Below are positions 3,020 through 64,000 of a stretch of DNA of 64,000 nucleotides, in pieces. Position 1 is the stretch's first letter; the number at the start of each line of letters is the position of its first letter. A model generated the notes under the pieces. The model was not told the DNA's origin. It searched no databases and worked only from the letters and a program-made list of their open reading frames with translations. The DNA comes from Blastocladiella emersonii ATCC 22665 (taxonomy: Eukaryota > Fungi > Blastocladiomycota): positions 1,612,001 through 1,676,000 of the forward strand of contig JANHCV010000002.1 of NCBI GenBank assembly GCA_025594325.1, read 5' to 3'. The position numbers were made by a program, and so were the translations under genes.

Positions 3020-5437
3020 ATGCAGTCCGAGGTCCTGATCGGCCTGCTCGAGTACGGCCTCTGGTCGACGCTGGCGCGTCTCGTCCTCGTCGGCCTGATC
3101 ACGAACGCGACGTACCAGCTGTTCCTGGTGCCGCGCCCGGGGCTGGCGCTCGCCATGCAGTTGTCACTGACGGACGGGCTCAAGATGGTCGGCGCCTACG
3201 CCAAGCCGCGGCTGACGCGCGCCCCGCGCAAGGTGCTGCTCGCCGTCGGGCTCGCCCTGATCGCGCTGTCGGCCAAGCTCGGCGACTACGTCGCCACCTC
3301 CTACTTCACCAACTCGCAGGCGCGCAACTCGGTGCGCGTCGCGTGGGTGCGCCAGACCAACGACCTCGTGCGCAAGTTCGTCCCCGACTCGTACCTCGGC
3401 CTGCCCGTGCCGCGCATCGCCGTCGTCGACATCCTCTCGGTCATTGCCGGGAAGTACTACGAAAAGGTCCGCCAGTCGAGCGTGTGGCTGCGCACCTACG
3501 GCGCCTTCACCGAGGCCGATCTCGCCGCCCAGCTGCTCGTCGATGCTGATACCGACGGCAAGCACTGCGGCTCGAACATCAAGGAGTCGTTTGCCGCGAG
3601 CAACATCTCGACGTTCCTCACCAACCTGACGTACTTTGGCCCGACGGGCCGGCTGCGCCTCGACGACCCGATGCGCCCGCAGCTCAACGTGTTCGGCCTC
3701 GAACTGTACCCGATGCGACTACAGTTCGGCCACGCCACCGGGTCCTACTACACGGTCGCGGTGCCCGTCCCCGTCGGGTACGCGGGCGAGTCGTCGTCGC
3801 TCGAGTGGAACGGCGGCCGCAACGTCGCCGACATGGCGAAAAAGGACACCTCGCGCGGCTCGCAGTCTTCGTCGCGCGTCACGCAGCACGGCGTGCTCAA
3901 CGACGAGTACAACCTCGTCGGCTACGAGATCGAGTGCGGGCTGACGCCGAGCGACGTTAATGCGTGGATTGACGGCAAGGCCGCCGACGCCGCCAAGTCG
4001 GCGCGCAAGTACGGGCTGGGCTTCGACTTCCGCACGTCCGGGTCCAACGTGTCCGCGTCGACGCTGCAGCTGCACACGTCCGACGTGAACCTCGCGTACC
4101 TCGACATGTCGCGGTGGGACAACCTCGACGACGACAAGCTGTACTCGAACGGCCGCCACATCGCCATGCTCGCGTCTGTCGACCCGGCGATGCTGGGCAA
4201 CGGCACCACCGAGTTCCTGACGTTCGCGTCGACGTCGGTCGGCGACACGCGCGCGGTGCGGCTCGCCGCGCACACGGTCTCGGACGCGATCGAGGTGCCC
4301 GCGCTGTTCCGCCAGGCCAACGGGCAGTCGGGCATGTACGTGACGTCGACGGGCATCGCGCTGACCGAGAAGCCCAAGGTCGAGTGCGCCAAGACCACGG
4401 GGTCGACGGCGCGGTACGACGTGAGCTCGGGCAAGCCGCAACCAAGCGACGCCGACACGGTCGCGGCGCGCAGTAATCCGTTCGACTGGTCCAAGTCGCG
4501 CGGGTTCACGGCCGACCCGGAGAAGTGCACGCTCGCGCTCAAGGGCGTCCGCGACTCGACGCAGCTGCGAGGGCGCGTCGGGCCCGCCGACACCGCGGCC
4601 ATGACGTACTACGGCGCGGCGCAGGTGTGCCGCGTGCGGCTGCAAAAGTACGAGGTGCGCGGGTTCAAGCCGGCCGACGGGACTGCGCGCGAGACGTACG
4701 CGTCACTGATCACGGCCGTCGAGGCGGTGCCCGTGACGGGCGTGAACGAGGTCGAGGTGCGGTGCCTGCCGCGCGTCGACGGCAAGCCCAAGGCGACGCC
4801 GGGCCAGTTTGGCGCGCTGCTCAGCAACCTGTTCGGCGACGACACGGCCGCGTGGGTGCGGTACCGGCTCATCGGGTCCAACACGGGCGGGCTGCTCGGC
4901 AGCACCGCCTCGACCGCGTACGAGTCGTGGGAGGACCCCGACGGCCCGCAGAGTTACTCGCGCACGCTGATCCGCGTGCCCGTGTGGCACTTCATCGCGT
5001 TCGTCGCCGTCCTCGTCATCTCGGCCGGACTCGCGTACGCCGGGTTCGGGTCCATCTTCGACCTCGTCATGTCGCAGGTCTACGCGTTCGCGTACCTGCC
5101 CGGCGCCGCGCCCGCCAACTCGCACGCGCGCGACGGCGAGGACGACGACAAGGCCGACGCCAACTGCCTCCCGACCGCGGCGGGCGGGACCTCGGACATT
5201 GACATCATGCAGAAGGCGACGCTCGCGCTCGTCGAGATCCCCGACGCACTCGCCAACGGCCACCCGACCAGGGTGATCCGTCTCGTCCCCGTCTCGGACC
5301 GCGGCGAGCCCGTCGTCTACTCGCCCGCCAGCGAATCGGCGGGACCCGTCCTGGCCACGTCCGCGCGGTACGCGACGGTGCACCGGCGCGCGCAGGCGCT
5401 CGATAAGGGCGACGAGGAGTTTGCGACCAAGCCGTAG
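3020..5437 (+). CDS. Intronless membrane protein of unknown family (about 805 aa; two N-terminal hydrophobic segments, large Cys-containing soluble domain, one C-terminal TM)
   Basis: Long ORF with strong GC3 bias. First ATG at 3020 (MQSEVLIG). Hydrophobic stretches [29 protein letters not shown] and WHFIAFVAVLVISAGLAYAGF. Confidence 0.75.
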   Translation: MQSEVLIGLLEYGLWSTLARLVLVGLITNATYQLFLVPRPGLALAMQLSLTDGLKMVGAYAKPRLTRAPRKVLLAVGLALIALSAKLGDYVATSYFTNSQARNSVRVAWVRQTNDLVRKFVPDSYLGLPVPRIAVVDILSVIAGKYYEKVRQSSVWLRTYGAFTEADLAAQLLVDADTDGKHCGSNIKESFAASNISTFLTNLTYFGPTGRLRLDDPMRPQLNVFGLELYPMRLQFGHATGSYYTVAVPVPVGYAGESSSLEWNGGRNVADMAKKDTSRGSQSSSRVTQHGVLNDEYNLVGYEIECGLTPSDVNAWIDGKAADAAKSARKYGLGFDFRTSGSNVSASTLQLHTSDVNLAYLDMSRWDNLDDDKLYSNGRHIAMLASVDPAMLGNGTTEFLTFASTSVGDTRAVRLAAHTVSDAIEVPALFRQANGQSGMYVTSTGIALTEKPKVECAKTTGSTARYDVSSGKPQPSDADTVAARSNPFDWSKSRGFTADPEKCTLALKGVRDSTQLRGRVGPADTAAMTYYGAAQVCRVRLQKYEVRGFKPADGTARETYASLITAVEAVPVTGVNEVEVRCLPRVDGKPKATPGQFGALLSNLFGDDTAAWVRYRLIGSNTGGLLGSTASTAYESWEDPDGPQSYSRTLIRVPVWHFIAFVAVLVISAGLAYAGFGSIFDLVMSQVYAFAYLPGAAPANSHARDGEDDDKADANCLPTAAGGTSDIDIMQKATLALVEIPDALANGHPTRVIRLVPVSDRGEPVVYSPASESAGPVLATSARYATVHRRAQALDKGDEEFATKP

Positions 5438-5689
5438 TGGGTCTACGGCGAGTAATATAGATATAGAAGCTTCAATTTGACGGTGCGATTCGTCAGGTCG
5501 AGTATCTAACCGAGTTGTGCGATTCGAAGCCTTAATGCGCGAATGAAAAGCTCGCAGCGGCTGGGGCTTCAGCACGTCGGCATGCTGATGCCCATGGACG
5601 CGTCGCGAAATCACGTTTCGCACACGTGTTGGAGATCATTGACGATCACAAACGTTACGCGCGTCTATTTCATGTCCTATATGTCGTCT

Positions 5690-6672
5690 CTATGCGGTGC
5701 GAATATTCTTGGGCTCCTCAACTGGCACGCCGGCGGGGGCAGACCCCATCCACCTCGTGGTCGAGCTCGGGACAGCAAGGGCCGCGAACGCTGGCGAGGC
5801 GGGTGAGCCGTACATGGGAACGGGCGGGTAGGGCGACGGAATCACGCTGGCCGCGGACACGTTGGGCGTCGAGAAACCGCCAAACGCAGCGGTGGACGGA
5901 GGGCGCGGCATCGACATGGTCCCGTACATCGGTGCGGGAAGCGCAGAGGCCTGCGGCTGCGGCATGTCCAAGGTCCCGTACGCGGGCGTCGGAGCGGGTC
6001 CCGTGTATAGCGGCTGCGGCTGCGGCATGCTCATGGTCGGGTACGCGGGCGCCGCAGCGGGGCTCGGGTAGTGCGGCGGCGCGTAGCCGGTACTCGCCTG
6101 CGGCAAAGGCGCTGGGGCGTGCGAGCAAGCAGCAGCCTGAGGTGCAGCGTTACTCGGCGGAGTGTTGATAGGTTGGTAAAACTGCACAATCCGAACGCGG
6201 CTGCGACGGACGAGATTCGCAAGGCATCCAAGAATGATCAGGCCGCCAACTGCGACCCCCACGTAAATGAATACAATGCTGCTGGAGCTGTCGTCGGACA
6301 GCGCGTCGCACGAGGACTTGAAGGCGCGGTCGACTAACGTGCCGTCCTCGTTGTAGAAGATGCATCCGCTCGCGCCCGAGGACGACTTGCGCACCCAGTA
6401 GCCCGGAGACCCGTTGTAGAAGGAAAGCGGGTAAATGTCTAGACGGATGCCGCGATCAGCGACTCGGGCGACGGGACGGAGAAGGCGCAAGGCGGTCCCG
6501 TACCGCCATACCGCGCAGTCCCTGCTGGAACGAACGCGGTTGAGTTGCTGGGCGGAAATGCCGAGGAGACACTGGACCCGAAGGAACCCTTGGGCATGGG
6601 CACGGGCTCGGCGAGGACAGCGGCCGCCGCGATGAGGGCGACGAAGGTGAAAGTGCGATACAAGTGCTTCAT
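5690..6672 (-). CDS. Single-pass type I membrane protein with small 2-Cys ectodomain and Pro-rich PPxY tail (one intron)
   Basis: Signal peptide MKHLYRTFTFVALIAAAAVLA. Predicted phase-1 intron GTACGG...CTAG. Ectodomain YPLSFYNGSPGYWV...GCIFYNEDG...C, TM IVFIYVGVAVGGLIILGCLA, tail with PPHY. Confidence 0.75.
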
Positions 6673-7898
6673 GAGGATCCGTAGGTGTCGACGTCGTGTG
6701 TTCCAAAAAGAGCGAGAGCAGCCGCTGGCAAGCTTCATTATTTATTGGGGAGAACGAGTCAAGCGCGCTGCGTGGGCCCGAGGGTTTGGTTTGTGGCGAG
6801 ACGACGACCGTGGCGACGCTGGACCGTCACCAGACCAGACGAATTTGATCATCTGGGCCTCGTGGGCCTCAAATGTCGAGCGCAAGAGTTGTTCTCTCCA
6901 GCATGTTTCAAAGTGCGCAACGCGATCGCATGCGAGGGTGATCCGTTCGAGGTCTAGCGAGCCCTGCTGTCGTGTTCAATCGGGTACCCTCCTTTGCCCG
7001 CCGCCATGAAGATCGCCGCGCTCCCTTGCGTTGCCACAAGTGTTTGGTAATTGATGTCTGGTTCAGCTAGTCTACCGTGAGAGATATCAGGCCTGCATTT
7101 CGAGAGCTGCCCCGTCATCAACCTTCTGATCAGCCTGCGCTTGTAGGGCCAAAACAGAGCGCGTTCCTGGTGCCCGGAGTACACTGCCACGCCACGCACA
7201 GGCGCAGAACTCGATCCGAACAATAGGATCCGTTGAGTTGTAACTGTTGCGTTGAGCAAAGCTGTCGGTGTCGCATCGGTCATCAAGGGCACAATGTCGC
7301 TCAAGTTCGCGGAAGGGTGCCCGAGCGTACGCCGGGTATCTCAGCAACTGCAGCACCGCGCTCACTCAACTGGTTTTCAGTGAATGGCGCTCCAGCACCT
7401 TCGCTGTGCCGCACGAGCGACCGAACGAAGCGCGAGCGAAGTGCGACGGGACGCGTTGCGCCACTCACATGACCCTCGACGCGACCTCGATGTTCTCGAG
7501 GAGCGCCTGGATGAGCAACCTTCCAAAATGTGTTCGCTTAACTAGCTGCGACGTATGCCGTCCGATCAGCTGAAGAGACAGGTCTGTCGTACCAAGTTCG
7601 GTCCTTCGGGCTAATCCCCTCGACGGCCATGGACCCGTTGAGAAGTTGGTGGCGCGGTGCCCTAAGTCTCGACCGCACTGTGCAGTACTGACGTTGGACT
7701 GCACCTGTGTCGCGATACTCAAGGAGCTTGGTCGCAGCGATACCCTCAACGCCAGGACCCAACTTTGGCACCCCGGTGTTCGGGGAGCTGCGAGGACGGC
7801 AGGGTTCGGCTGGGCGCAGGGCCAGGTCGACGCTCGCGGGACGAGCTGCAGTTGTCCTACCTCACACACACACACTCCATGCATTGCAACGTAAGCGG

Positions 7899-9467
7899 AT
7901 GAAACTCTCAATTACCCCGATTCTCGAGCAGATCCTCGTTCGCGCCGTCTGGGCGCACGATGACCCCGACGACGTGCCCGGCCTCTTGGCGTACTCGCGC
8001 GTGCTGAGCGAGGATGACGCACCGGGCGTTCATCTTGCTGTGCTTCAGCGCTCGCCGCGACTGTCGCCCGACAGCGCGAGCAGCCGCGGCGCGGTCCCGG
8101 TCCTCGACAAGTGGAAGGCGACGGGCCTCGAGATCGAGTTTACGGAGCTCGCGCTCACTTGCGCCGTCGACGGCGGGCATCTTTCGACGATCGAGTGGTG
8201 GCGCGACTCGGGCCTCGTCCGCCGCGAGCACTACCCGCACGACAACGACGGAGTGCTACCCGCGCTGGGACTTGAGATGTCTACTCCGAGCGTGGCCGAT
8301 CTCCACGCCGCGGTTTTCACGGCCGCCGCCACCGTGGCCTCGGGCGACATGCCAAACGTCCAGCTCATGATGACGCCGATCCGGATGCCCGACATCCACG
8401 CGCTCAACGAGGCGTTTGCGAGCCCGACGCAGGCGGTGCAGTCGCTCCACCTGTGGGGGTGCACCGTCGACTGGCCGCGCTTCTTTGCGTTCAAGCTTCC
8501 GCCGACGATCATCCACCTCGACTTTTTCTCGCAGTGGTGCGTCGCGCCGCCCAACCCGGACGACGTCGCGCGCTGGACGTGGCCGCCGCTGCTTGCCGCC
8601 ATGGGACTCCGGTTCCATATCGGCGGGCCGGTGTTCCCGCTGCGCACGCTTCCAGCGACGCTCGTGGAGCTCGATGTCTCGCGCTGCAAGATGGACGATG
8701 CGCTGGTCCTCGATCTCCTCTCGCTGTTGCCTCACTCGCTGAATGCGCTCGATCTGAGCGAGAACTCGCTGACTGGAACTGGGCTCACGCGCGCCGGACC
8801 GCTTCTCCCGCCGCAGCTCCAGAGTCTCCGCCTTGCGAGCACCAAGATCAGCACGCGCACCAACGAGCTCCACTTGGACTGGCACTTCCCGCTTACTCTC
8901 ACAAAACTTGTCGTCTCGAGCTGCGAGCTCAACGCTGATGCGGCGCATGCGCTTGCTCGCGCGATCCCGAGCTCGCTCACCTCGCTTGACATGCAGTACT
9001 GCACGCTCGACGACACGGCGGCCCACCGCGCACTCGCCGCCGCGCTTCCGCCCACGCTCGAGGTCTTGATCATGGGCAACATGGCCCTCGGCCACGACGC
9101 GCTGCACGAGTACACGACGCGTCTCCCGCCATCGCTGCGCGAGCTCAATGCGCCCGGGAACGCGTTTAGCGAGAGCAACATGCGCGAGCTCGCCGCGCAC
9201 ATGCCCGCGCAGCTCAAAGAGCTGTGGCTCGAGCGGACCGGGATCACCGACACATGTACGGCGGTTTTCGTGCCAGCGCTGCCGCGCACGCTCACGGTGC
9301 TGTGCATGAGCAAGAACAGGGGGTTGACGGATACGACGGCGTGCCTGCTCGCCGAGCATCTCGCGCCGCCGAACGTGGAGCGGCTGTACCTCTACAGTTG
9401 CAGTATCAGCCGCGAGGGGAAGGAGGTGATGTGCCGCAATATCCCAGCGACGTCCGTCTATTGCTGA
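7899..9467 (+). CDS. RNI-like LRR protein, paralog of 124..1965 (about 522 aa)
   Basis: ATG at 7899 (MKLSITPILEQILVRAV). Ankyrin-like ASSRGAVPVLDKW and AVDGGHLSTIEWW. LRRs LPATLVELDVSRC, LPHSLNALDLSEN. Confidence 0.85.
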   Translation: MKLSITPILEQILVRAVWAHDDPDDVPGLLAYSRVLSEDDAPGVHLAVLQRSPRLSPDSASSRGAVPVLDKWKATGLEIEFTELALTCAVDGGHLSTIEWWRDSGLVRREHYPHDNDGVLPALGLEMSTPSVADLHAAVFTAAATVASGDMPNVQLMMTPIRMPDIHALNEAFASPTQAVQSLHLWGCTVDWPRFFAFKLPPTIIHLDFFSQWCVAPPNPDDVARWTWPPLLAAMGLRFHIGGPVFPLRTLPATLVELDVSRCKMDDALVLDLLSLLPHSLNALDLSENSLTGTGLTRAGPLLPPQLQSLRLASTKISTRTNELHLDWHFPLTLTKLVVSSCELNADAAHALARAIPSSLTSLDMQYCTLDDTAAHRALAAALPPTLEVLIMGNMALGHDALHEYTTRLPPSLRELNAPGNAFSESNMRELAAHMPAQLKELWLERTGITDTCTAVFVPALPRTLTVLCMSKNRGLTDTTACLLAEHLAPPNVERLYLYSCSISREGKEVMCRNIPATSVYC

Positions 9468-9554
9468 TGGTCAGCTCGCAAGTGGATTCATTTATATATA
9501 TTGCATCGATTGCTTGTATCCTGCACGTCGCTGGTGGCCCGCCGCGCGAGCGCC

Positions 9555-10428
9555 TCACGCAGCACACTTTGCGCCAAGCAACTTATCCGCGCCCGCTCTG
9601 GTGACGCCATTGTTGTCCCTCAAGTTGAGCGCAAGGTCAAGCACTCGAGCGAGGCGAGGCTGGGCGGGAGCGCGCGGAAGAGTGCGGCGGCGACGCTCGC
9701 GGAGATTAGAGTGGACGCGAGGGTGAGATGTACGAGATTGGGTGGCCATGACCAATCGGCGGGAGCGAGGCCATGGAAAAACCACGCGTGCTTGAGAACA
9801 AGCTTCGTCAGCGAGGATGGAAACCGGAGCGCCCCGAGCCGCGCCAGGTTCCAAGTGCAGCTGTCGGAGCTGAGCGAGAGCGAGGTCCGCGTTCGGGGAC
9901 GATATGGCCACGTTGAGCGCGCGCATCCCGTTCACGCTGATCAGCTCGGACCTGAGCGCAAGCTCGGTGGCCATGTCAGTCGCGATCGCAAGCGTGGCCG
10001 CGTAGATCGCCGTGTCTGCGAGGCACAAACTGGCGCAGACCCGCGTCATACGCAAACCCGAGCGCGGCGGTTGCCATGGGGCCGAGATTCAAGGTAGGCA
10101 TGCTGGCGGCGACCGTTCCGGACGTGCGCCTCCAATGAAAGACGTCGAGCCGCCGTTCCCTCGCAGCGGCAAACGCGATCCGCGCGATGGAGAAGTTGGG
10201 CGGGAGGCCCGACGCGACCCAGAGGTCGAATTCACGGGTTGCGCCGCGAGTGCTCGGCTGGTACAGCGAGAGGTATCGTAAGCGGCGCAGGATTGCGCGG
10301 TAGACGGCGATTCTCTCCCGCCCGGGCAGGACGCGCGCGTCGTTCGCCATGCCCGCCACGTCGACGGGCTCGTCGTGTAATTAGACGGCGCGGACGAGGA
10401 TGCTCTCGTTGTGCGAGGTGATGTTCAT
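9555..10428 (-). pseudogene. Decayed copy of the LRR family
   Basis: MNITSHNESILVRAV-stop(10381-10383)-LHDEPVDVAG matches MKLSITPILEQILVRAVWAHDDPDDVPG. Downstream homology continues in shifted frames, with most LRRs missing. Confidence 0.7.
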
Positions 10429-11025
10429 TTGCTATGCATTGAGTGACTTGGTGGAGAGGGGGCCGGTTGCGGCGCTCGCGCGCGCTCGAGTCGGGTGAGC
10501 GGGGGTTCCGCCACCACCAGTCGAACAATCGAGACTTGCCGACCACCGACCACTCTAACACCGGCGTATGCTGGGAGGAGAACGAGGGCAGGGCGGGCGT
10601 GCCACGTCGACGGCGAGAGGACGCGTCGCGGTCGCGTGTGCGGCACGTGCTTGATCGCCGAGCGCCCATGAACCCGTGATCACGGGACGCGAGCGTAATG
10701 CAGAGGCGCCCTCATGTCGCGCGCGCGCCGCGAGTGCGCCCAAGTCGGAGCCGTGCCACGTCGCCGTCGCCCTCCTCCGGCTCCCCTCCCCCGCTCGCTC
10801 TCTCTCTCGGCCGCCCCAACCGCCCGCCCGGATCGCGCCCGTCAGACACTCGACGCAACGCAACGCATCACGGAGCGACGGACCCCCGACGAAGCACACC
10901 CACGACGACGCGCGCGGCTGGACCCTCGCTGCACTACAACCGACCTCGCTGGATCGCCCCTCCTTTGACCTTCACGCCATCCACCCGCCCGCGACTGCAA
11001 CCGCGACTGCACCGACGACGCCACC

Positions 11026-13277: not shown

Positions 13278-14020
13278 TCATGCGACCGTGTTCCGCGGCA
13301 GCGTCCGCGCCGCCGCGTGCTCGGCCTGCTTCGCGCAAGCGACGATCTCCGCCGCCATGGCCGCGCCCGCGTACTGGTTCGACGGCGGCGCGCACGTGTA
13401 GTGCTCGAGCAGCATACCATCCGTCGAGGCGACGCGTGGCGCGGGAGTGCGCGGCTGCACCGACGTTGACGCGACGCGGATCGAGCGCGGCGTGCTGCCG
13501 GATGCAACCGCGGGACGCAGCGGCACACTCGCAAACGTCAGGTCCTTGTGCGTGTCGGGATCCTCGAACCTGCTCAGGGCCACAGCGCCGCCGACCACCG
13601 CCACGTCGAGCCCGAACCACACCATCGGCTCGGTCGGGACTAGCGGCAGGCCCGCGAACCGGAGCGCGACGAGGATCTGCGTCGCGGCCTGGTACGCGGC
13701 GAACCCGAGCTTCCACGTGCGCAGGGCCGACGAGGTTTCGCCAGCGACGAGCTCGCGGCGCAGATGCGCGGCGTGGACGCACACGTCGGCGACGAGGGCC
13801 AGGAGCCACGACGCGACGAAGCAAATGGCGATGGTTTGTGCGTCCGTGTTGCCGTCGGGTTCTGGAGAGCGGGGGGAAGGTGGTGAAAAGAGATTGCAGT
13901 GACGCGGCTGAGATGTTCGCGTGGATTCCGGCCATGAGCTCGCAGCCAGTGGTGAGAAGCGTGAGATGAACGTCGCGTCCAAGCGTGGCGTACGAGCAAC
14001 ACTGCGTGAACGGCAAGGTT
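13278..14020 (-). pseudogene. Multi-TM family copy A (probable frameshift; lacks the last intron of its paralogs)
   Basis: Homology to copies B-D (DVCVHAAHLRREL, WKLGFAAY). In-frame TAG at 14021-14023 precedes the first homologous block. Frame switch near the G6 run at 13871-13876, which could be a sequencing error. Confidence 0.6.
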
Positions 14021-53987: not shown

Positions 53988-55218
53988 ATGAAGCTAATGG
54001 AGGAACGACTACATGCAACGCGACTGCCAGACATGGTCATTGACCAAATTCTATGCTACGCCGTGCGGGCGACTGATCCCGACGACGTCAACCAGCTGCT
54101 TCAATACGGCCGCGTCCTGCTTCGCGAAGGAGCCCCTCGCGTCCACCGAGCGATCCAGAACCACATGATCTCAATCTCCATGGACGATGCCAGCGCGACG
54201 GAACGCTTGAACGTGCTTGACGCTTGGCGCCGGTCTGGGAAGCCCCTCGACTACTCTGCGCGCGCCATCACCGATGCGGCCCCGTCGTACAAGACGCTCG
54301 ACTGGTGGCGCCGCTCCGGTCTTCCGCTTCCCGATTGCATGGTCGGGCCGATGGTCAAGGTTCACTTCAACGGAATTTGCCAAATGTCCGAGGATGACGA
54401 TCATGTTGTACGTTGCATTTTTTGCTCAAAAAATTCGGGCCCTCTCGACTAACGCGATCATATCAGCAACTCGTGCGCCGTGACGATCCGCCAGGCGACA
54501 AGTATATCACGTCGAACTTCATCCCCAACGGGCTCGACGGTAAGCATTACCAGACCATGGTGTGGTGCAGTGGGATGCGCGTCACAAAGACTGGAGCGTC
54601 CGCCCTCGCCAAGGCTATGAACAAACCGATGATGAATGTTCAGGACGTCGAACTCAATTATTGTGACTTAACGTTCCCGGTTATCTGCGCGTTACAGCTA
54701 CCCGAATTGGTCTTGGAGCTTGAGCTCGGTTTCAACTGGGCAAGCGAAGGCGCTGCGGACTATGCTGCCAAGGAGGGCAACGTCTCGCCTTTTCCCCGCA
54801 CCTCCGCCGCCTTTCACTTCGCAGTAACATCCTTGGAAGCCCAAACGATGTCGACGCTCTCTTTCGTTCGTTGCCCTCATCGCTCACAGAACTCAACCTC
54901 TTGGGCACTTTTCTTGGCGCTGAAAACGCGGGCGTTCTCGCCGACTATCTCCCGCAAAGTCTCAAAACTCTGAACTTGTCTGAATGTCATCTCGACTCCC
55001 AGTGCGTGGAAGTACTTGCGCCGTGCCTCCCAAAGACTTTGTACAAGCTGTACTTGAACTCCAACAACATCACCGCAGTCGGCGCAGCCGACCTCGCGCA
55101 CCACTTCCCGCCACAGCTCTCCCTGCTTGATCTAAGCAACAACCCGCTTGGCGACAAGGGACTAGCTGCACTCTCCGCTGGACTCGGCGCGAGCCTGCAA
55201 CTGCTGTTGTTGTATTCC
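53988..55218 (+). pseudogene. LRR-family gene with a 1-nt frameshift (near 54801), truncated by the element insertion
   Basis: Family N-terminus (VIDQILCYAVRATDPDDV), intron 54408-54466, FPRT/LRRLSLRSN frame switch. LRRs run to GASLQLLLLYS and homology then stops at a palindrome. Confidence 0.8.
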
Positions 55219-55233
55219 TTAAGGGATACGACA
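55208..55233. repeat. Imperfect 12-bp inverted repeat at the junction (TGTTGTATTCCT-TA-AGGGATACGACA)
   Basis: 10 of 12 positions complementary; both mismatches are transitions. Confidence 0.8.
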
Positions 55234-55359
55234 TGGGCTGACCCACTGCCACTCGGGCTGACCAATTGCTTACCCCGAGCAGTTGGCGGCAGTCACTTGG
55301 GGTAACCACGTGAGACCCAGTTGCTTACCCCAGGTGGTTAATAATATGTTGGATTCTAA

Positions 55360-55386
55360 TGTCGTGTTCCCTTAGGGAACACGACA
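55360..55386. repeat. Perfect 12-bp inverted repeat (TGTCGTGTTCCC-TTA-GGGAACACGACA)
   Basis: Read directly. Each arm matches the junction palindrome arm at 9 of 12 positions. Confidence 0.9.
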
Positions 55387-55686
55387 CGCGGACGGAGGCT
55401 GAAGGCCAAAGCAGGTGGGCGGGAGGGTGGGTGGAAGGGAGGGGGCAAGTGGTCAAGGAGTGAGTCCTTGACCTGACCCCCAAGCCAGTCCCTGACCAAC
55501 CCCTTGGGCTGACCATTGCTTACCCCGAGCGGTCGGCGGCGGCCAGCGAGCGCAGCGAGACGAAGAGCAGCGCAGCTGCAGCTACCCACTGACAGAGTTC
55601 CCTGGTCTGGTCCCTGACCTGACCCCCAAGCCCGTCCCCAACCACCTGCCGCAAGCGGCTGCTATGAAGCCACTCACCGCGCCAAC

Positions 55687-55754
55687 CTCCACTTTCATGG
55701 CATATTGCGACAGAGTATATATATACACTACCCTTTTTTGCCATGAAAGTGGAG
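55687..55754. other. Concentric dyad: perfect 16-bp inverted repeat around a 12-bp AT palindrome (origin-like)
   Basis: CTCCACTTTCATGGCA (55687-55702) and TGCCATGAAAGTGGAG (55739-55754). GTATATATATAC (55715-55726) has the same centre, 55720/55721. Confidence 0.8.
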
Positions 55755-55925
55755 ATTGTCAGAGACAGAGGTCAGGGTACGGGGGGGAGGTCAAGGACAG
55801 GGGAGTGTCCTTAGCAGCATCAATGTATTGGGCAGGACAGGGTCAGGGGTACAAGGTCAAGGCAGAGGAGCGTCTTAGCAGACAGCGTCTTAGCAGGAAG
55901 GCAGCGTGGCAGGTCATGGAGGGTC

Positions 55926-58900
55926 TTAGAGCTCGTTGTTGTCCTCGTTGTCGTCCTCGTCCTTGTCCATCTCCAGGACAAACGGCGCCGAATTGGCCGG
56001 GGGTCGGTTCCAGGTCTTGTACATGACAAAGTACAGAATGTCGTCTGTCCACTTCAGGTTACTGTACTTCTTGCCGCGTACTGAGACCCGGGGTTCGTCC
56101 TTGTCTGGCACAGCAAGGCACTTGTTAAAGTAGGTGCCAAGAAGCCTGTTTAGGACTGTTGCTGTGTCACACTTGTAATACCCAAGCTTCTTGAAGTACT
56201 TGTGGATGTCTGCTTCAAACTTGGCGGGGATGGTGGCCTGGATGTTGAACTCCTTGGACGTGCGGAGGTCCATGTCGTTGTGTTCCAGGAGCTTGTGCAG
56301 GACGTGGCCCTTGTCCTTGGTGTAAAAGTGCTGGATACGCTCCATGAAGCTCTCCGCGTTGTCGTCCCAGATGATCTTCATGTTGTCCATGCTCAGACCA
56401 TTGAACTTGTGGATGAAGAAGGCCTTGCGGATGGAGAGGGAGATGATCCAGTCCGGGTCCTTGATGGTACCTTTGCAGTAGGCACGCATGAGCTCCTTGG
56501 ATGGTGGCTGGACGTTTGCCCATTCGAAAGACCAGCCCGACGTCATGATATCCTTAATCTCAGGGTGCGCCTTGTAGTAGTACTCGGGGGAGTCGTCCAT
56601 GACAACGTTGGCGACCTTGCGGAAGGCGTCAAAGACCTTGAGGCAGAAGGTCACAGCGGCCATCTCGTTCTCAAGATCCGTGTTCTTGACAATAGCCCGG
56701 TGAGGTTTGCCGACCGAGTCCGAGTCAATGACCTGTAACTTGTTCATGTACGCGCCGTGGCAACCATTGCTGATCATAAACACGATCTTGTTGTCAATGG
56801 GGTAGCGCACGCGGTAGATTGCCTGGAAGAAGTTGCGGGCAGGGACCCAGGACTTGTAGCGCGCGTACACCTTGTGGAAGACGTCTGGCTTTGAAAAGTT
56901 GACCCCCACAGTGATCTTGAGGTTGGCAATGACTATACGGACCGTATCATTGCCCCACACAGAGTCAGGGTCAATGAGTTCCTTGTCCTCGTGGTTGGGG
57001 CGGTCGCCGTGGTAGAGCTTGATCTGCTTGCCAATCTTCCACGTCTCCTCGGCAAAGACCCGCTCGAGGTACTTGCCAAAGGTCTGCACCGACCACTTGG
57101 TTGACTTCTTGCATGGTCGTGGGAGGAAGAGGTAGAGCTTCTTGTTGGCCTTGAGGTCGGCAATGATGTTGCTCTCCATGATGTCTTCGGCGGACTTCTT
57201 GTTGTCCTTGTCGTCAGTGATGAGGCTCATCTTGCGCGGCTCAAAATTCTTGCCGAGCGTGTTCGTGATCACCTTGATCTTACCATGGAGTATGGTCTTG
57301 ATGTTGTGCTCGACAGTAAAGGAGCGGAGGACATCCATGGTCAGGTTTGTGACAAACGCGTCCATGAAGATACCCTTGCTGCCCTTGTGCTCGCACAGCG
57401 TCTTGAAGGCCTTGAGGTTGGCCTTGAGGTTGTTGCAAATGGTGGTTGTGTGCAACTTGGCGTCCTGGAACATCTTGAGGACCGTCTCGGACTCATCCAC
57501 CACAACAATGTTGTAGGGCTCGGTCAAGTAGTGCAGCAAGCACGGCGAGACAATGAGTTGCTTGTGATCCCCCAGTGTCTTCTTGTCCTTGATGCTGCGG
57601 TAGTTGACAAAGCCAAGCTTCTGTTCGCGGGCTCGACCCTCGGTGTTGTGGGCCAGGGTGATGCGAGGTGTGATCCAGACCACTCGCGCGTCTGGGTACT
57701 TGGCAATGTAGTCGCAAACAGCGCCTGTCTTGTTGGAGCCCATGCCCGTGGCCAGCACGTTGAACTTGGCCTCGGTAATGTCGTTGCAGCTCAGGAACTG
57801 GTTGGGGCTGGTGACGTCCACCGGTACCTCAAGCGACTGCTCAAACTTGGCCATGGCCTTGGACTTGAACGCGTCTGGGAACCGCTTGTAGAAGATGGCC
57901 TTGACGAACGTGTCCAGCACCTGGTAGTTGTCGTTGCTGGCAATCTCGTTCCATCGGTCCCAGTACTTTTGCATGCGCTGAGCCGAGTTGTCCTGCTGCG
58001 ACGTCCACGCCCAGAACTGGTCAAATGTGACCCCTTTGCGCATGGCCCATGTCATGATCCGCCAGGTCACGTTGTTGTGGAACGCGTTCTTGGGGCTGAT
58101 GGGGATGTTGTGGAGGATCTTGAGGGGCGTGGCGTCGTAGTAGAAGAAGTCAGGGTTGATCTGCACGTCCTTGAACTTGGGGATGTCAAGGTTGTAGTTG
58201 AGGCGACCCGCGTGGCGCTTGGTCCGCGCTTCCTTGGCCTTGGCAGTCACAAACTCTTCAAAGGACAGGTCCGAGACCGACGCGCAGTTGGGGTCAAAGT
58301 CGCACTGGATCAAGTGCTTGGACAGGCGGTCCTTGTTACCCGAGATCCACACGCCAGGTGTCTTCTTGGGCTTGGACTGGTTGATGCACTTCATGAAGCG
58401 GTGCTTGCTGTACACGCTGGAGTCAAAGCCAAGCTTGACGTGGTCGGGGTGGCTGCAGAACAGCTTCAGGAACGGCATGTCCTTGAGCGTGACTGTGTAG
58501 TTGCTGAGGACAATGTGCCATGACTTTTTGAGGTCTGTCTCATAGCCGCAGACCTGGAGGTTGGCGCCGGGGAACTGGGCCAGGATGACCTTCTTGATGA
58601 CGTCCAGGGTCACGTCCTTGCAGTTGCCTGGGCAGTCAATGTCAAAGTAGACCTTGGACAGGCGCTCAGGGTGGACCATCTCCTGGATGCAGCGGTTCTT
58701 GTTGAGGAGCCTGGCCAGGTCAGCTGTCTTGACCTTGGCAAAGTAGTGCGCCGCCTTGGGTTGGCTGTGGTTGTCGACGCCCTTGTTGATGAGGCGCTTG
58801 ATGACCGTCTTGTCGTCTTGCAGCTCGGACAAGAGCTTGCACTGAGGGCCCATTTCATCACCACCTTCATCCTTGCCATGGTACCACTGGAGACCAAAGG

Positions 58901-58940
58901 ATTTGCCACCTGCATTTTTGGGGACCGTCTTGCAGACCAT
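55926..58940 (-). CDS. AEP (PrimPol-like) primase + PriCT-like + herpes UL9-like SF2 helicase fusion (about 1004 aa)
   Basis: ATG at 58940 (MVCKT). AEP motifs YFDID, KSWHIV, FDSSVYSKHRFMK. Helicase motifs TGMGSNKT, VVWITPR, VVVDESE, MDAF, ITVGVNF, FQAIYRVR. Confidence 0.85.
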   Translation of the reverse strand: MVCKTVPKNAGGKSFGLQWYHGKDEGGDEMGPQCKLLSELQDDKTVIKRLINKGVDNHSQPKAAHYFAKVKTADLARLLNKNRCIQEMVHPERLSKVYFDIDCPGNCKDVTLDVIKKVILAQFPGANLQVCGYETDLKKSWHIVLSNYTVTLKDMPFLKLFCSHPDHVKLGFDSSVYSKHRFMKCINQSKPKKTPGVWISGNKDRLSKHLIQCDFDPNCASVSDLSFEEFVTAKAKEARTKRHAGRLNYNLDIPKFKDVQINPDFFYYDATPLKILHNIPISPKNAFHNNVTWRIMTWAMRKGVTFDQFWAWTSQQDNSAQRMQKYWDRWNEIASNDNYQVLDTFVKAIFYKRFPDAFKSKAMAKFEQSLEVPVDVTSPNQFLSCNDITEAKFNVLATGMGSNKTGAVCDYIAKYPDARVVWITPRITLAHNTEGRAREQKLGFVNYRSIKDKKTLGDHKQLIVSPCLLHYLTEPYNIVVVDESETVLKMFQDAKLHTTTICNNLKANLKAFKTLCEHKGSKGIFMDAFVTNLTMDVLRSFTVEHNIKTILHGKIKVITNTLGKNFEPRKMSLITDDKDNKKSAEDIMESNIIADLKANKKLYLFLPRPCKKSTKWSVQTFGKYLERVFAEETWKIGKQIKLYHGDRPNHEDKELIDPDSVWGNDTVRIVIANLKITVGVNFSKPDVFHKVYARYKSWVPARNFFQAIYRVRYPIDNKIVFMISNGCHGAYMNKLQVIDSDSVGKPHRAIVKNTDLENEMAAVTFCLKVFDAFRKVANVVMDDSPEYYYKAHPEIKDIMTSGWSFEWANVQPPSKELMRAYCKGTIKDPDWIISLSIRKAFFIHKFNGLSMDNMKIIWDDNAESFMERIQHFYTKDKGHVLHKLLEHNDMDLRTSKEFNIQATIPAKFEADIHKYFKKLGYYKCDTATVLNRLLGTYFNKCLAVPDKDEPRVSVRGKKYSNLKWTDDILYFVMYKTWNRPPANSAPFVLEMDKDEDDNEDNNEL

Positions 58941-58978
58941 GTTGTTATGATGAGGTAACAGAAAAGGTGACAGGACAG

Positions 58979-58992
58979 GTGCGTTTAAACGC
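58979..58992 (-). promoter_or_regulatory. Element promoter motif GCGTTTAAACGCAC upstream of the primase-helicase
   Basis: Ends 38 nt before ATG 58940; a near-identical motif precedes the recombinase gene. Confidence 0.55.
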
Positions 58993-59104
58993 GCAGGATT
59001 TAGCGTTAATGACTGGGCCCGGGAGCCCTTGCTGGCATGACCCATGACTTGCCACTGTCCAGGCCCATCTAACCTTGCATGACCTGACCCTGACCCAGAC
59101 ACGA

Positions 59105-59540
59105 CCTCCCCCATGAGCCCGACTTGGGAACCAGCAGGGTCCGAGGTCACGACCACCAAACCGTGACCTGGTAAGCGACTGAGTCCGAGGTCACGACCCT
59201 CCCATGCTCCCAACTTGGGAGCCAGCAGGGCCCGAGGTCACGATCCTTGAACTGTGACCTGGGCAGCGACTGAGGGCAAAGTCACCGACCCCCCATGCTC
59301 CCGACTTGGGAGCCAATTGCGTCTCAGGTCACGATCCTTGAACCGTGACCTGGGCAGCAACTGAGGGCAAAGTCACCAACCCCCCATGCTCCCGACTTGG
59401 GAGCCAGTAGGGTCCGAGGTCACAACCCCCATGAGCCCAACTTGGGAGCCAGTAGGGTCCGAGGTCACGACCCCCATGAGACCAACTTGGGAGCCAGTAG
59501 GGTCCAAGGTCACAAACCTCTCAAACCGTGACCTGGGCCC
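59105..59540. repeat. Tandem array: three 91-bp units then 45-bp units, with internal palindromes
   Basis: Anchor CCATG..CCCRACTTGGGA at 59111, 59202, 59293, 59384, 59429, 59474 (spacings 91, 91, 91, 45, 45). Confidence 0.9.
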
Positions 59541-59609
59541 TCCCACGGTCCATGACTTGCCACCATCATGACCCTGACCCAGGCCCAGCTACCCAGAAAA
59601 AAGAACGTT

Positions 59610-59623
59610 GCGTTCAAACGCAC
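59610..59623 (+). promoter_or_regulatory. Element promoter motif GCGTTCAAACGCAC upstream of the recombinase
   Basis: Ends 39 nt before ATG 59663. Confidence 0.55.
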
Positions 59624-59662
59624 TTGAGCCCATGGAGCCTTTTTGTTGACAGTCAGTAAACC

Positions 59663-60805
59663 ATGGCGCTTGACTCTCTTGCCTCCCAGGTCGCCATTGC
59701 CCTCGCTCAGCACTTTGCCGCCGATGTAGTGCACCAAGTGCTCAATGGTATCAAGCCGCTGCTGGCATCCTTTGACGAGCGGCTCAAGGGAGTTGAGACC
59801 AGCCTCGCCGCGCTGGCTGCAGTGTTGCGTAACTGCAATCACCGTCCCAATCACACCCCCGTCGACGAGTCTGGCGAGCCCATGGACACTGATCCCCAGG
59901 TCAAGTACGTGCAGATGACCGAGGAATCCATTGCGGCGTGCGTCAATGCGCGTGTTCAGAACAAGCACGGGGAACTGGTTGAGCTGAGCGACACGGACAA
60001 GGCCAAGGCATCCCGCGTGCTCTGTGCCTTTGCCAAGTCGGGCATGGACATTGAAGACGTTGATGCCGTGTCCAAAGCTGTGGCAGCGTACCACGCGTCC
60101 AAGGGCGAGCAGGGGCTGCAGGTTGAGACGCTCAAGGCCCTGGCCAAGTACTGCACCTGGAATGGTCAGCCTGAACTTGGGGCCAAGTACACAGAGGCCA
60201 AGAAGCAGGACGCTGCCGACTTCTGCAACGCGCGCAAGGAACTCGAGTCTGGTGCGCTCCCGAGCCGTGACGCCATTCGCACTGCTATTGTTGATGCAAA
60301 GGGCTGGGACTCGGGCACGGGGCTTCTGCGTCTGTACCTCCAAGTCGTGAGTGCAGTGCGCAGCGACCCCGCGTTCCTGACCACAAAGCCAATCACTGGG
60401 TACCCGTACTACGACCCAGAGACCCAGATTCTGGCCAGCAATGTCATTGTCAAGACAGAGGGCTGTGGCTACAACTTCTCGCACACAGTTAGTGAGCCCA
60501 AGGTCGCCGCCGCTCTTGAGCGTATCATTGCCCAGCGTCTTGCCAAAGGCCATGACTTTGTCTTCAACAACTACACCTGCGAGGAGCTCAAGGACACCAT
60601 GCTCCGCAAGAGGGTTAGCAACACCTGGTGCAAGTCAATTCACCGGGCTGCAGAGACAGTTGGCTTTGAGGATGGCGGCGTGGCAGTGATCCGCCGTATC
60701 TCCACCAGCGAGAACTTTGCCGCGCAGCAAGCTATTGCTGACCGCGCACACGAGATGGGTCACAGCGTCCCTGTTGCCCTGACCTACTACATGACGCCTC
60801 AGTAA
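59663..60805 (+). CDS. Tyrosine recombinase of the virophage/PLV type (380 aa)
   Basis: Catalytic order R (SAVRSD), K (IVKT), xxxR (AVIRR, His absent), H (MGHS), Y (TYY) near the C-terminus. Confidence 0.75.
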   Translation: MALDSLASQVAIALAQHFAADVVHQVLNGIKPLLASFDERLKGVETSLAALAAVLRNCNHRPNHTPVDESGEPMDTDPQVKYVQMTEESIAACVNARVQNKHGELVELSDTDKAKASRVLCAFAKSGMDIEDVDAVSKAVAAYHASKGEQGLQVETLKALAKYCTWNGQPELGAKYTEAKKQDAADFCNARKELESGALPSRDAIRTAIVDAKGWDSGTGLLRLYLQVVSAVRSDPAFLTTKPITGYPYYDPETQILASNVIVKTEGCGYNFSHTVSEPKVAAALERIIAQRLAKGHDFVFNNYTCEELKDTMLRKRVSNTWCKSIHRAAETVGFEDGGVAVIRRISTSENFAAQQAIADRAHEMGHSVPVALTYYMTPQ

Positions 60806-60833
60806 TCCTTTTGTCTCCGCCTTTGTTAATACA

Positions 60834-61946
60834 ATGTATGCCCACGAAGAGCCGCTCACAGACGCACAGCAAGCATTCCTGACAGACTTGTACTACAAGC
60901 ACGGCCACGTAGGTGTTGGCATCCGTTGGCTCTTTGACATTGTGTCCAGAGAGAACACAGGGAAGCACATCTACCGCGCCCAGCTAGAGAGATGGCTCGG
61001 CAAACAGTCTGTGAGGCAGCAGTACAAACGCGCACCTCAGAAGCGCCAAGACATTCGAAGCATCAACTCAACAAGTCCTGGCCGCAACTTTCAGCTCGAC
61101 CTCATTGACATGGGCGAAAACGGTACGTACAAGGGCTTCCGTTACATTCTCACGTGTGTCAACCTGGCGAGCCGCCGCGTCTACCTCCAACCCATCAAGA
61201 CCAAGGACAAGACGCGGGAAGCATGGTCCAGCGTGGTCGCCAAGCACAGCCTTGCACCTGCCACGATCCAGACGGACAATGGGACCGAGTTCTTTGGAAT
61301 AGAGGCCGGGACCAAGGCCAAGCACATCAAGGGCAAGGCAGGAGTGCCATACGGTCAAGGTGTCATTGAGCGTATGAACGGGACCATCCGCCGGATGCTC
61401 ACACCGTGGCTGTCCATCCCGGGCAACAACGACTGGCCCAAGCACCTCGAGACCATTGAATCTGTCATCAACAGCAGCAAGTCGAGGGCCACGGGCAGGG
61501 CGCCCAACGAGTTCCATGACATGCCCCGCAAAACGGCCAAGGAAGAGCTCAAGGCAATCCGAGCTGCCAAGGGCAAGCCCGAGGGCAACCCTCTGAGCGC
61601 GTTGCTGAAGGTAGGGACCCAGGTCCGAGTCCGCGAGCCGTACAAGACTGCCATGGAGGCCAAGGGGAAGCCGGTCTGGTCGCCGACCGTGAGCCAGGTC
61701 CAGGTCGTGCGCAAGGGGTCGGGCGTGAGCAAGCCAAGCTACAAGGTCCAAGGCCTCAAGGGCTTCTACCCTCGAAGCGACGTCCAGCCAGTCACAGCGA
61801 CCCAGGACCCGCCAACAAGGCAGCGCGTAGGTCCAGGTCTTCCAAGGCTCCCTGTTGCGCGCACCCCAGTCACGCCAAGGGAGCCCTCGACCCGGGTCAG
61901 GCGCGTCCCAGTCCGAGTCCAAGAAAAGTGGGACCGCGGGCTTTAG
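60834..61946 (+). CDS. Retroviral-like (rve) DDE integrase, Maverick/Polinton type (370 aa)
   Basis: QLDLIDM, YILTCVNLASR, IQTDNGTEF, IERMNGTIRR, INSSKSRATGRAP. C-terminal KVGTQVRV..WS..YKV. No gag, RT or RNase H nearby. Confidence 0.92.
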   Translation: MYAHEEPLTDAQQAFLTDLYYKHGHVGVGIRWLFDIVSRENTGKHIYRAQLERWLGKQSVRQQYKRAPQKRQDIRSINSTSPGRNFQLDLIDMGENGTYKGFRYILTCVNLASRRVYLQPIKTKDKTREAWSSVVAKHSLAPATIQTDNGTEFFGIEAGTKAKHIKGKAGVPYGQGVIERMNGTIRRMLTPWLSIPGNNDWPKHLETIESVINSSKSRATGRAPNEFHDMPRKTAKEELKAIRAAKGKPEGNPLSALLKVGTQVRVREPYKTAMEAKGKPVWSPTVSQVQVVRKGSGVSKPSYKVQGLKGFYPRSDVQPVTATQDPPTRQRVGPGLPRLPVARTPVTPREPSTRVRRVPVRVQEKWDRGL

Positions 61947-63886
61947 AGCAGGGTCCAGTGGCTTTGAATGATGACCTGGCAGTCGTTGGCAACTGCGACT
62001 GACGGGATCCAGATGAAAGAGTAGCTCTTGGCCGCGTCAAGGTACTCAATGCTCGAGAACTGAAGGAACTGGACATTGCCTTCAGCACGGCACCCGGTGA
62101 CAAGCGACACTGCAATCATGTCCGTCATATTGTACAGCGCAAAGTTCACAGTGTGGGCTCCAGGGAGCGCGCCGTTTGCGTAGTAGCCCTTTGCATGGAC
62201 GAGGTAGTAGCCACTGACAGGGGGTTTGACGCATCCATTGATCACAGACGTGAACGCGCCCGCTGTGGACTGGAACGCAAAGGTGGCCGGGCCCGTTGAT
62301 GCTGTGCCGCCAATGATCTTGCCGCCCGTGGTCACTCCATTTGTAGAGCGGTGCTCGGCCTGAGCGACGTACCGGGTCGTGCCAGACCGCGAGTCAACGT
62401 ACGCCTTGTTTGCCGCGTTGGTGCCTGCCACTGGAGCAAGGTCAAGGGTGAGCTGCCCTGTGAAGCGACCAGTGCCATTGACGCGGAACCTTTCTGTGCC
62501 AAGCGTCGCCGAGCCCACGACCACATTGCCGCCACCTGCCACAAGGGAGACCCCGCCTGTGGTCGCAGACGCATTCTCAATGTTACCCGCCGCTGTGCAT
62601 GCCAGGTTGCTTCGCAGTACGCCTGCCTGCTTAAAGTCGACGTACGTCAATGTATTGGCAGCCGAGTCAAAGACAAGGTTCGCGCTTGTGGCATTCCGGA
62701 CCAGGACGTTGGGCACAGTCAGTTGCTTGCCAACTCCAAGACCACCAGCAATGGTGACTGCTCCAGTGCTTGATGTCAAACTGTCCGTCGTATTTGCAAA
62801 GGCAAAGGCAGCGCCGAGTCCAAGGGTGGACTGGGGGAGCGTGCCAGTGACCGAGGCTGCGCTCACGGCCGTGACCTTGGCCGAGACGTCGGGGAGTCGT
62901 GCCAGGTCAATGGTCCCTGCAAGCTTGGCCGAGTCAATGCCAGATGCCAGCTTGGCGTTGGTCAGGGTCCCGTTGGCGATGCGGGCAGGGTCAAGGATCC
63001 CAGTGAGCTTGACCGCCGACACGTCCGCGACCTTGGCGTCCGTGACTGCGCCTGCTGCCAGGTGGGCTGTTCCAATGGACCCGACGTTGAGCTTGCCCCC
63101 ATCAATGCCAGTTGCCAGCTTGGCGTTGGTCACGGCCGCGTCTGCCAGGACCAGGGAGCCAACCGTGCCTGCTGCCAGCTTGGACCCGTCGATGCCAGCT
63201 GCCACCTTGGCGTTGGATACAGCACCGTCTGCCAGGGCTCCCGTCCCAATAGTCCCTGCAACGAGCTTGGACCCAGACACAGACGCGACCTTGGCATCTG
63301 TGACTGCCAGGTCGATGAGAGCCACTGTGCCGACTGTGCCTGCCACGAGCTTGGACCCAGACACGGACGCGACCTTGGCATCAGTCACTGAGCCGTCTGC
63401 CAGGACCGAGGTCCCAACTGTGCCTGCCACGAGCTTGGACCCAGACACCGACGCGACCTTGGCATCAGTCACTGAGCCGTCTGCCAGAACCGAGGTCCCA
63501 ATGGCTGGGAGGTTGGACGCACTGAGTACGCCCACAACCTTGGACGCAGACACAGTGTCCAGCTGAGCATCAACGAGCTTGCCTGTGACCTGCCCTGCTG
63601 TAATCGTGGCGACCTTGTCGGCCGTGATGCTGGCTGGGAGCAGCTGTGCCGTACCAACCGACTTGACATAGAGCCCTGCTGCGCCCACGCCAAGGGTCTG
63701 GTTGTCGACCTTGGCCGACACAGTGGTCCCTGAGACTGCCACGCCAGGGCCAGCAACAGGTGTGCCAACCGTGGCGTACACGGCACTGATGGCCGCATCA
63801 ACGTAGGCCTTGGACACGTCCGGGACCCCCGTGGTAGACACGGTCAGAGACGCAGTACTTGAGACGTTAAAGATATTCTTGACCAT
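61943..63886 (-). CDS. Virion fibre/adhesin-like protein with 28-29-aa shaft repeats and a C1q-like head (about 647 aa)
   Basis: ATG at 63886. KAYVD motifs, about 6 repeats of GTSVLADGSVTDAKVASVSGSKLVAGTV, TGAVTIAGGLGVG, head with PPVSGYYLV. Confidence 0.75.
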   Translation of the reverse strand: MVKNIFNVSSTASLTVSTTGVPDVSKAYVDAAISAVYATVGTPVAGPGVAVSGTTVSAKVDNQTLGVGAAGLYVKSVGTAQLLPASITADKVATITAGQVTGKLVDAQLDTVSASKVVGVLSASNLPAIGTSVLADGSVTDAKVASVSGSKLVAGTVGTSVLADGSVTDAKVASVSGSKLVAGTVGTVALIDLAVTDAKVASVSGSKLVAGTIGTGALADGAVSNAKVAAGIDGSKLAAGTVGSLVLADAAVTNAKLATGIDGGKLNVGSIGTAHLAAGAVTDAKVADVSAVKLTGILDPARIANGTLTNAKLASGIDSAKLAGTIDLARLPDVSAKVTAVSAASVTGTLPQSTLGLGAAFAFANTTDSLTSSTGAVTIAGGLGVGKQLTVPNVLVRNATSANLVFDSAANTLTYVDFKQAGVLRSNLACTAAGNIENASATTGGVSLVAGGGNVVVGSATLGTERFRVNGTGRFTGQLTLDLAPVAGTNAANKAYVDSRSGTTRYVAQAEHRSTNGVTTGGKIIGGTASTGPATFAFQSTAGAFTSVINGCVKPPVSGYYLVHAKGYYANGALPGAHTVNFALYNMTDMIAVSLVTGCRAEGNVQFLQFSSIEYLDAAKSYSFIWIPSVAVANDCQVIIQSHWTLL

Positions 63887-63906
63887 GTTTAACCTTAAGC
63901 AACAGA

Positions 63907-64000
63907 ATGATTTCCAGCGACCATGACCTGAGCCTGGACGAGTGGCAGGAGCACCTCGCCGGGACCATGCCCGTGCCAAGCAGCTGGTACAGCAAGAGCG
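63907..64000 (+). CDS. Possible start of the next element gene (MISSDHDLSLDEWQEHL...), open to the window end
   Basis: 31 open codons only, divergent from the fibre gene. Confidence 0.25.
   Translation, partial: MISSDHDLSLDEWQEHLAGTMPVPSSWYSKS

Follow-up and report, generated by a model that had tools for sequence, protein, structure and literature searches.

A primase-helicase with a GxNKTG Walker A motif and an adjacent candidate origin in an endogenous virophage- or Polinton-like element of Blastocladiella emersonii

Several viruses encode proteins in which an archaeo-eukaryotic primase (AEP) is fused to a superfamily 2 (SF2) helicase resembling herpesvirus UL9. In the supplementary tables of one survey (PMC7805220, Tables S6-S7), the virophage and Polinton-like virus (PLV) clusters PC_0108, PC_0233, and PC_0360 include such fusions, and A0A0A0RKB1 of Yellowstone Lake virophage 7 (YSLV7) is listed (Table S7) as a "replication origin-binding helicase." Passages of PMC11253617 describe AEP-SF2 fusions for the Yaraviridae, mimivirus R8, pF1055L from African swine fever virus (ASFV), and ostreid herpesvirus 1 (OsHV-1). 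Here, we analyzed a protein of this kind, P0001, encoded in a stretch of 64,000 nucleotides of Blastocladiella emersonii ATCC 22665 contig JANHCV010000002.1 (the window), whose last 8.8 kb (55217-64000) belong to an element that continues beyond the window's end. A previous reading made from the sequence alone (the sequence-only reading) had taken the single-chain architecture as its main novelty. This claim falls because the fusion is of an already known kind, described for virophages, PLVs, and Yaraviridae; new are a coupled variant of the P-loop and a candidate origin beside the gene.

The best viral structural match of P0001 over its full length was A0A0A0RKB1 (E 8e-50, TM score 0.54, 21% identity), and P0001 shared 30% identity over 732 columns (E 2e-70) with a protein of a contig bearing a Sputnik-type major capsid protein (MCP). 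The related contigs, about 15 to 30 kb long, belonged to virophages, with a Sputnik-type MCP, and to PLVs, with A32 ATPase and lipase. P0001 resembles the YSLV7 group in its small-virus context, with genes for capsid, A32 ATPase, and tyrosine recombinase in the relatives' contigs. However, the contig relatives carry GxGKT in 70 of 70 readable Walker A motifs, while P0001 carries GxNKTG, and the group's descriptions in the sections of PMC7805220 consulted mention neither a motif variant nor an origin. An AEP is likewise combined with a UL9-like SF2 helicase in mimivirus R8, ASFV pF1055L, OsHV-1, and the Yaraviridae SF2_hel fusions, and giant-virus proteins of this type came next in the fold search. 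These fusions differ in being from giant viruses or HUH-bearing mriyaviruses and share 11 to 16% identity with P0001. Among solved structures, UL9 of herpes simplex virus 1 (HSV-1; PDB 9HGI/9HGJ) has the closest helicase fold, but it has no primase domain, its Walker A motif is GSGKTT, and it reads DNA with a C-terminal domain containing RVKNL.

The relatives of P0001 begin at position 58940, and an ATG upstream at 59114 was rejected as the start on this ground. The structure predicted for P0001 from 70 sequences had a mean pLDDT (predicted local distance difference test) of 89.5. In a structure comparison, human PrimPol superposed on residues 15 to 224 (Z 16.0, root mean square deviation [rmsd] 3.0, 193 aligned residues), and the AEP motifs D100-x-D102, S140-x-H142, and D173 were each kept in almost all relatives covering them. 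We assign P0001 to the primase class on these DxD, sxH, and D motifs together with the RRM-like palm of the predicted structure. For residues 357 to 794, no PDB chain matched better than the UL9 helicase domain (Z 24.8, rmsd 3.9, 372 aligned residues); the tandem RecA fold of UL9 and motifs Ia to VI are present, motif VI reading QAIYRVR. The AEP motifs, the SF2 helicase with DESE, and the noncanonical Walker A motif seen by the sequence-only reading were thus all recovered. Its Trp-rich, PriCT-like linker fared less evenly: the linker is there and conserves P280, F309, and W312, whereas the PriCT-2 identity is only a lead, with 10 of the 10 best named Atlas matches in one family or clan at a score of 0.84 (below the 0.9 mark) and no Pfam match to PF08707 (PriCT-2) in P0001 or 33 relatives. 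A family profile of 134 sequences matched UL9 (E 5e-34) and PrimPol (E 1.7e-4) and 20 of the 33 relatives matched PF02399, while P0001 itself returned nothing from Pfam, PF02399 included, or from PHROGs. The C-terminal domain, which we infer to be the DNA-recognition part, gave no Atlas match when searched within the full-length model.

The Walker A motif of P0001, GMGSNKTG, aligns with PMGSGKTT of HSV-1 UL9, and N403 lies opposite UL9 G86. A hidden Markov model search returned 1,246 proteins at E ≤ 0.001, the best 150 of which were used. Of 165 aligned rows, 160 covered the Walker A site. The residue at the N403 site was G in 79 rows, N in 71, A in 5, R in 4, and S in 1; the departure from canonical GxGKT is therefore found across the family. 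The sequence-only reading had allowed for a helicase inactivated in this copy only. For Walker A this fails: Asn was present in 13 of 14 Blastocladiella-type copies (the remaining one has S), in four of four Allomyces proteins with identity down to 44%, and in the 71 relatives above, indicating that it is not decay private to the window copy.

The Asn is coupled to a second position. Of the 71 N rows, 70 had Gly at +3 of the site, compared to only 5 of the 79 G rows. We placed the Walker A states on two trees built with the Walker A columns removed, one made with FastTree (151 rows, 14 short or gapped rows dropped) and one quick IQ-TREE tree (99 rows, after dropping 46 rows from a clade with G throughout, 5 near-copies, and 1 long branch). 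They required 19 and 16 state changes, respectively, at least 11 of them in each tree forced by starred branches, and in both trees the N/G site and the +3 residue shifted jointly in 11 of 11 independent pairs (sign test, p 0.001). The pair toggles repeatedly, at least 11 times on the tree, which does not fix the direction of change. The residues preceding the site remained clade-specific (GCG, PLG, PMG) across the switches, so that point changes fit better than block swaps. Two rarer states, GxAK[S/T] with Gly at +3 in zero of five and GxRKT with Gly at +3 in three of four (P0017, P0043, P0051, P0072, P0082, P0085, P0086, P0094, and P0104), are in line with a size trade-off between the site and +3. 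The N-type motif GMGRNKTG also occurs in P0014 (Spizellomyces punctatus SPPG_01932), on a branch separate from the blastoclad proteins. Among the 76 contig loci, Walker A was readable in 70, and a search of the viral contigs with an N-type alignment gave 8 loci, none of them N-type where readable.

In P-loops generally, the Gly preceding the Lys is nearly universal, and one could read GxNKTG as the mark of an ATPase that is weak or dead and serves the primase only as a scaffold for binding DNA, the more so as Walker B or motif VI is altered by E-to-K or R-to-C changes in several fungal copies; others, such as P0003 and P0009, have intact motifs. We regard this as improbable. Indeed, rows with Asn keep K404 in 71 of 71, D482 in 69 of 70, E483 in 68 of 70, and R710 and R712 in 63 of 65, the catalytic residues as a whole (K404, D482/E483, Q706/R710/R712, and the AEP residues) being about equally conserved in the N and G states. 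In addition, the N state reverses repeatedly together with its compensating partner, and the defects of the fungal copies are dispersed and resemble CpG decay (observed/expected CpG 0.72 in the element, with an excess of TpG/CpA across 55217-64000, versus 1.29 in the host). One change is private to the window copy: S468L in the otherwise conserved SLH motif, with the codon TTG compatible with CpG deamination, so partial decay of this helicase copy is possible.

Where the backbone is left-handed, Asn occurs more often than any other residue except Gly. In UL9, according to the part of PMC12543377 used here, G86 contacts ATP by its backbone amide, and K87A or E175Q abolished activity in the experiments quoted from PMC13483431; the equivalent Lys and Glu are intact in P0001. 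Asn403 would keep the amide that UL9 G86 offers to the alpha-phosphate, and its side chain would fill the room freed by Gly at +3, the Asn and +3 side chains competing for one space. GxNKTG is likely an active, family-wide alternative P-loop. A full-text search found no paper with a helicase of GxNKTG-type Walker A, although subscription papers and bioRxiv supplements may hold one.

We know of no replication origin defined for virophages or Polinton-like viruses. A palindrome lies 168 bp beyond the helicase stop, the sole strong long-spacer palindrome in the visible element (z -7.5, 0 of 200 shuffles); none with arms of at least 18 was found in 53.9 kb of host DNA. ORF904 of the archaeal plasmid pRN1 is a primase-polymerase fused to a superfamily 3 (SF3) helicase. 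The pRN1 stem-loop of Sulfolobus lies just past the replication gene and is needed for replication, as stated in PMC4234260, and P0001 likewise sits beside its palindrome; the layout also resembles HSV-1 oriS, where inverted sites surround an A+T spacer (PMC12543377).

We surveyed 76 nonredundant loci, which grouping at 70% identity reduced to 53 lineages. Such a palindrome was present within 500 bp of the helicase gene in 23 of 53 lineages, compared to 28 of 388 nonadjacent genes (p 1e-10), whereas each of four flank shuffles gave 0 of 53. These palindromes are linked to this gene family. They lie upstream in 6 lineages, downstream in 12, and on both sides in 5; the arms vary between lineages, and A+T words, for example TATA or TTAA, occur in 22 of 23 centers. 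A role as the recombinase site was rejected: of 26 cases with the recombinase gene more than 1.5 kb away, 12 had a palindrome beside the helicase and none had one beside the recombinase.

The palindrome could instead be a transcription signal (a 3' hairpin, a terminator, or an autoregulation operator), with the protein as described above. Virophages use giant-virus late promoters and poly(A) hairpins, many palindrome centers contain TCTA-like words, in 12 of the 23 cases the palindrome is confined to the downstream side, and other intergenic regions hold several copies in 13 of 53 lineages. On the other hand, 11 of the 23 cases include an upstream copy, some inverted on both sides, the nearby palindromes of other genes are few (the 28 of 388 above), and long spacers with a centered A+T core are closer to oriS and pRN1 than to terminators with short loops. 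We therefore hold a transcription signal to be unlikely, though a serious contender, and replication likely starts at the palindrome beside the helicase gene. The parts of the review PMC10301787 that we drew on contain no passage on origins, and those of PMC4981718 nothing on origins or this protein; no literature search aimed at a virophage palindrome was made.

The element itself is multicopy and endogenous, with a recombinase next door. We counted 14 Blastocladiella-type helicase sequences including the window copy, and in 11 of the 13 named ones the recombinase is at the next locus tag. The nearest named relatives are Blastocladiella emersonii proteins of at most 91% identity, followed by Allomyces proteins at 44 to 50%. 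On the left, the host genes, which encode a dynein heavy chain, a SUMO protease, and a SPRY protein, end at about 55217, single-depth contigs stop at 55236/55246, and summed depth jumps from about 149 to 1,400-11,000 at the junction (run X1; four runs from one sample, depth not being copy number).

As the sequence-only reading had stated, no family B DNA polymerase (PolB) was found among the open reading frames (ORFs) of the visible 8.8 kb, by ORF listing and Pfam. This raises the question of whether the element might be a Polinton whose protein-primed PolB (pPolB) lies beyond position 64000, the fusion gene then being accessory. The element does carry an rve integrase, PLV replication modules mix freely (10.64898/2026.06.19.733378, in the text consulted), and only 8.8 kb are visible. 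Yet no DNA polymerase Pfam family matched among 111 neighboring ORFs of 13 related loci, PolB motif patterns found nothing in 76 loci (1.08 Mb; uncalibrated, without a positive control), and L014, an 18.7-kb relative with a circular map, lacks PolB. Furthermore, the left end is att-like, the recombinase adjoins the gene in the 11 named copies mentioned, and related Allomyces genes lie on contigs of 14.6 and 15.0 kb. The chance that this is a pPolB-bearing Polinton is accordingly small in our view. Of the replication mode advanced by the sequence-only reading, the PolB-free part fits the relatives without PolB, the L014 circle, and the origin-like palindrome beside the gene, while its novelty is not supported, such replication being known for virophages, PLVs, and Yaraviridae. 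pPolB is often replaced by helicase fusions in PLVs (10.64898/2026.06.19.733378; SF2 is not mentioned in the portion seen).

Recombinase-bearing PLVs circularize before integration, as argued in the passages of PMC4642659 cited here. Some relatives show other ends: the contigs L062/L063 and L081/L082 fold back over their whole length, and L002 ends in a perfect 56-bp palindrome (13313-13368). Such ends possibly represent hairpin telomeres made by the recombinase, or artifacts; they were not counted as hairpin proof because amplification or assembly artifacts look alike. In all, one relative maps as a circle and three show fold-back or palindromic ends.

Taken together, we consider it probable, from the sequence evidence above, that P0001 is the replication protein of a multicopy endogenous virophage- or Polinton-like virus, with GxNKTG likely active and replication likely from the palindrome. 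The tyrosine recombinase would release the element, the C-terminal domain would bind the palindrome arms, the SF2 motor would melt the TATA spacer, and the AEP would lay primers, to be extended either by a polymerase of the host or of a helper virus or by the AEP; zoosporic fungi host giant viruses (PMC13533422, in part), a possible helper. Several points weigh against this view. The N-type query raised the share of Asn in the alignment, and both trees were fast ones without bootstrap. No such palindrome lies near the gene in 30 of the 53 lineages, and the window holds the only one tied to an N-type gene because all 70 readable motifs of the contig loci are G-type. In an SF3-helicase control, 1 of 9 had a palindrome within 500 bp and another had one at 644 bp with the same core (p 0.14), so that specificity for the SF2 fusion helicase is not significant, this control being too small. 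The rve integrase, although a weak match, is a Polinton trait, and the visible 8.8 kb, which stop short of the element's right end, showed no capsid gene. Finally, the UL9 C-terminal DNA-binding and dimer domain did not align to residues 795 to 982, the alignment stopping at UL9 residue 508-510, and RVKNL, its motif, is absent from the P0001 sequence.

Table 1. Positions of the features in the window (residue numbers refer to P0001)
Feature	Position	Strand	Details
Left junction, imperfect palindrome centered on CCTTAAGG (55217-55224)	55207..55233	.	Breaks host leucine-rich repeat (LRR) frame (LRR_6 E 1e-10)
Perfect 27-bp palindrome resembling the junction	55360..55386	.	att-like (inferred); 140 bp inside element
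Palindrome, candidate origin	55683..55758 (76 bp)	.	20-bp arms (1 mismatch), 36-nt spacer with TATATATATA
P0001, AEP primase-polymerase/helical linker/UL9-like SF2 helicase/C-terminal domain	55926..58940	-	1004 aa, single open frame
C-terminal domain, residues ~795-982	55995..56558	-	Confidently modeled, pLDDT mostly 80-95
SF2 helicase core, residues 357-794	56559..57872	-	Matches HSV-1 UL9 residues 25-508
Walker B DESE, residues 482-485	57486..57497	-	
Private S468L in conserved SLH motif	57537..57539	-	Ser in 158/159 rows with residue
Walker A GMGSNKTG, residues 399-406	57723..57746	-	N403 57732-57734; G406 57723-57725
Trp-rich helical linker, PriCT-2-like (lead only), residues ~270-355	57876..58133	-	
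AEP domain, residues 15-224	58269..58898	-	PrimPol superposition, profile match, motifs
AEP catalytic codons	D100/D102 58635-58643; H142 58515-58517; D173 58422-58424	-	
Array of ~45/91-bp direct repeats with short inverted repeats	59108..59560	.	Between divergent helicase and recombinase genes
Tyrosine recombinase, OLV11-like	59663..60805	+	R224, R344, H367, Y376
rve-type integrase	60834..61946	+	PF00665 E 5e-5 (below curated cut-off); transposase PHROGs
Fibre-like repeat protein, 647 aa	61943..63886	-	PF09327 E 5e-10; tail-fibre PHROGs

The other features of the element are listed in Table 1. At its left end, a host LRR gene (54829-55218) is interrupted at the att-like palindrome with the CCTTAAGG core, which is known from one junction; one run contains a read joint between 54316 and 55217, a hint of other copies in similar host sequence. 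The recombinase aligns its catalytic set R..R..H..Y with virophage/PLV recombinases (E 4e-6 in a small local search), and Xer, Int, and Cre filled the top ranks of its fold search (Z up to 9, weak, from a low-confidence model). A search with the neighboring integrase gave a single relative at 31%; the relative P0187 passes rve_3. With the tyrosine recombinase and the rve integrase side by side (59663-61946), this small element carries two systems of integration that are unrelated to each other. The repeat array (families D1, D3, and D7) contains GGTCACG..CGTGACC inverted pairs and is possibly an operator or a second origin part. Differences between copies are mostly transitions, and together with the CpG depletion they are likely a sign of methylation silencing.

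No locus was recovered when the viral contigs were searched with the alignment of fungal helicases, with the recombinase, or with the integrase. In the virophage contigs L009/L092, L018, and L103, major capsid genes of the Sputnik type stand in tandem, two to three per contig, and the virophage contig L116 (2233-6812) carries a TET-associated glycosyltransferase with an L544-like nucleotidyltransferase. In the sections of PMC7805220 at hand, the genes "MCP, ATPase, DNA helicase" are noted for an Allomyces macrogynus PLV, and the Spizellomyces punctatus PLV has pPolB and 154-bp terminal inverted repeats, unlike the described features of the present element; all three are endogenous small DNA viruses in zoosporic fungi. 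A literature search found no Blastocladiella virophage or endogenous Polinton, although subscription papers and bioRxiv supplements may list such elements.

More tentatively, and at somewhat less than even chances, virophages and PLVs with this protein would be self-starting replicons of the oriS/pRN1 type, in which a single protein recognizes, melts, and primes at the lineage-specific palindrome next to its gene, the gene and this palindrome form a swappable cassette, and the motor uses a second, hitherto unnamed P-loop solution toggling with GxGKT. With a 76-bp site and a single protein, a virophage/PLV origin becomes directly testable. Having taken place no fewer than 11 times, the paired swap of Gly to Asn with Gly at +3 amounts to a natural experiment in the chemistry of Walker A, and it cautions against declaring helicases with such a P-loop dead. 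Finally, and speculatively, a multicopy element such as this one, residing in a zoosporic fungus, may be a parasite of the giant viruses that were recently described from these fungi (PMC13533422, in part).

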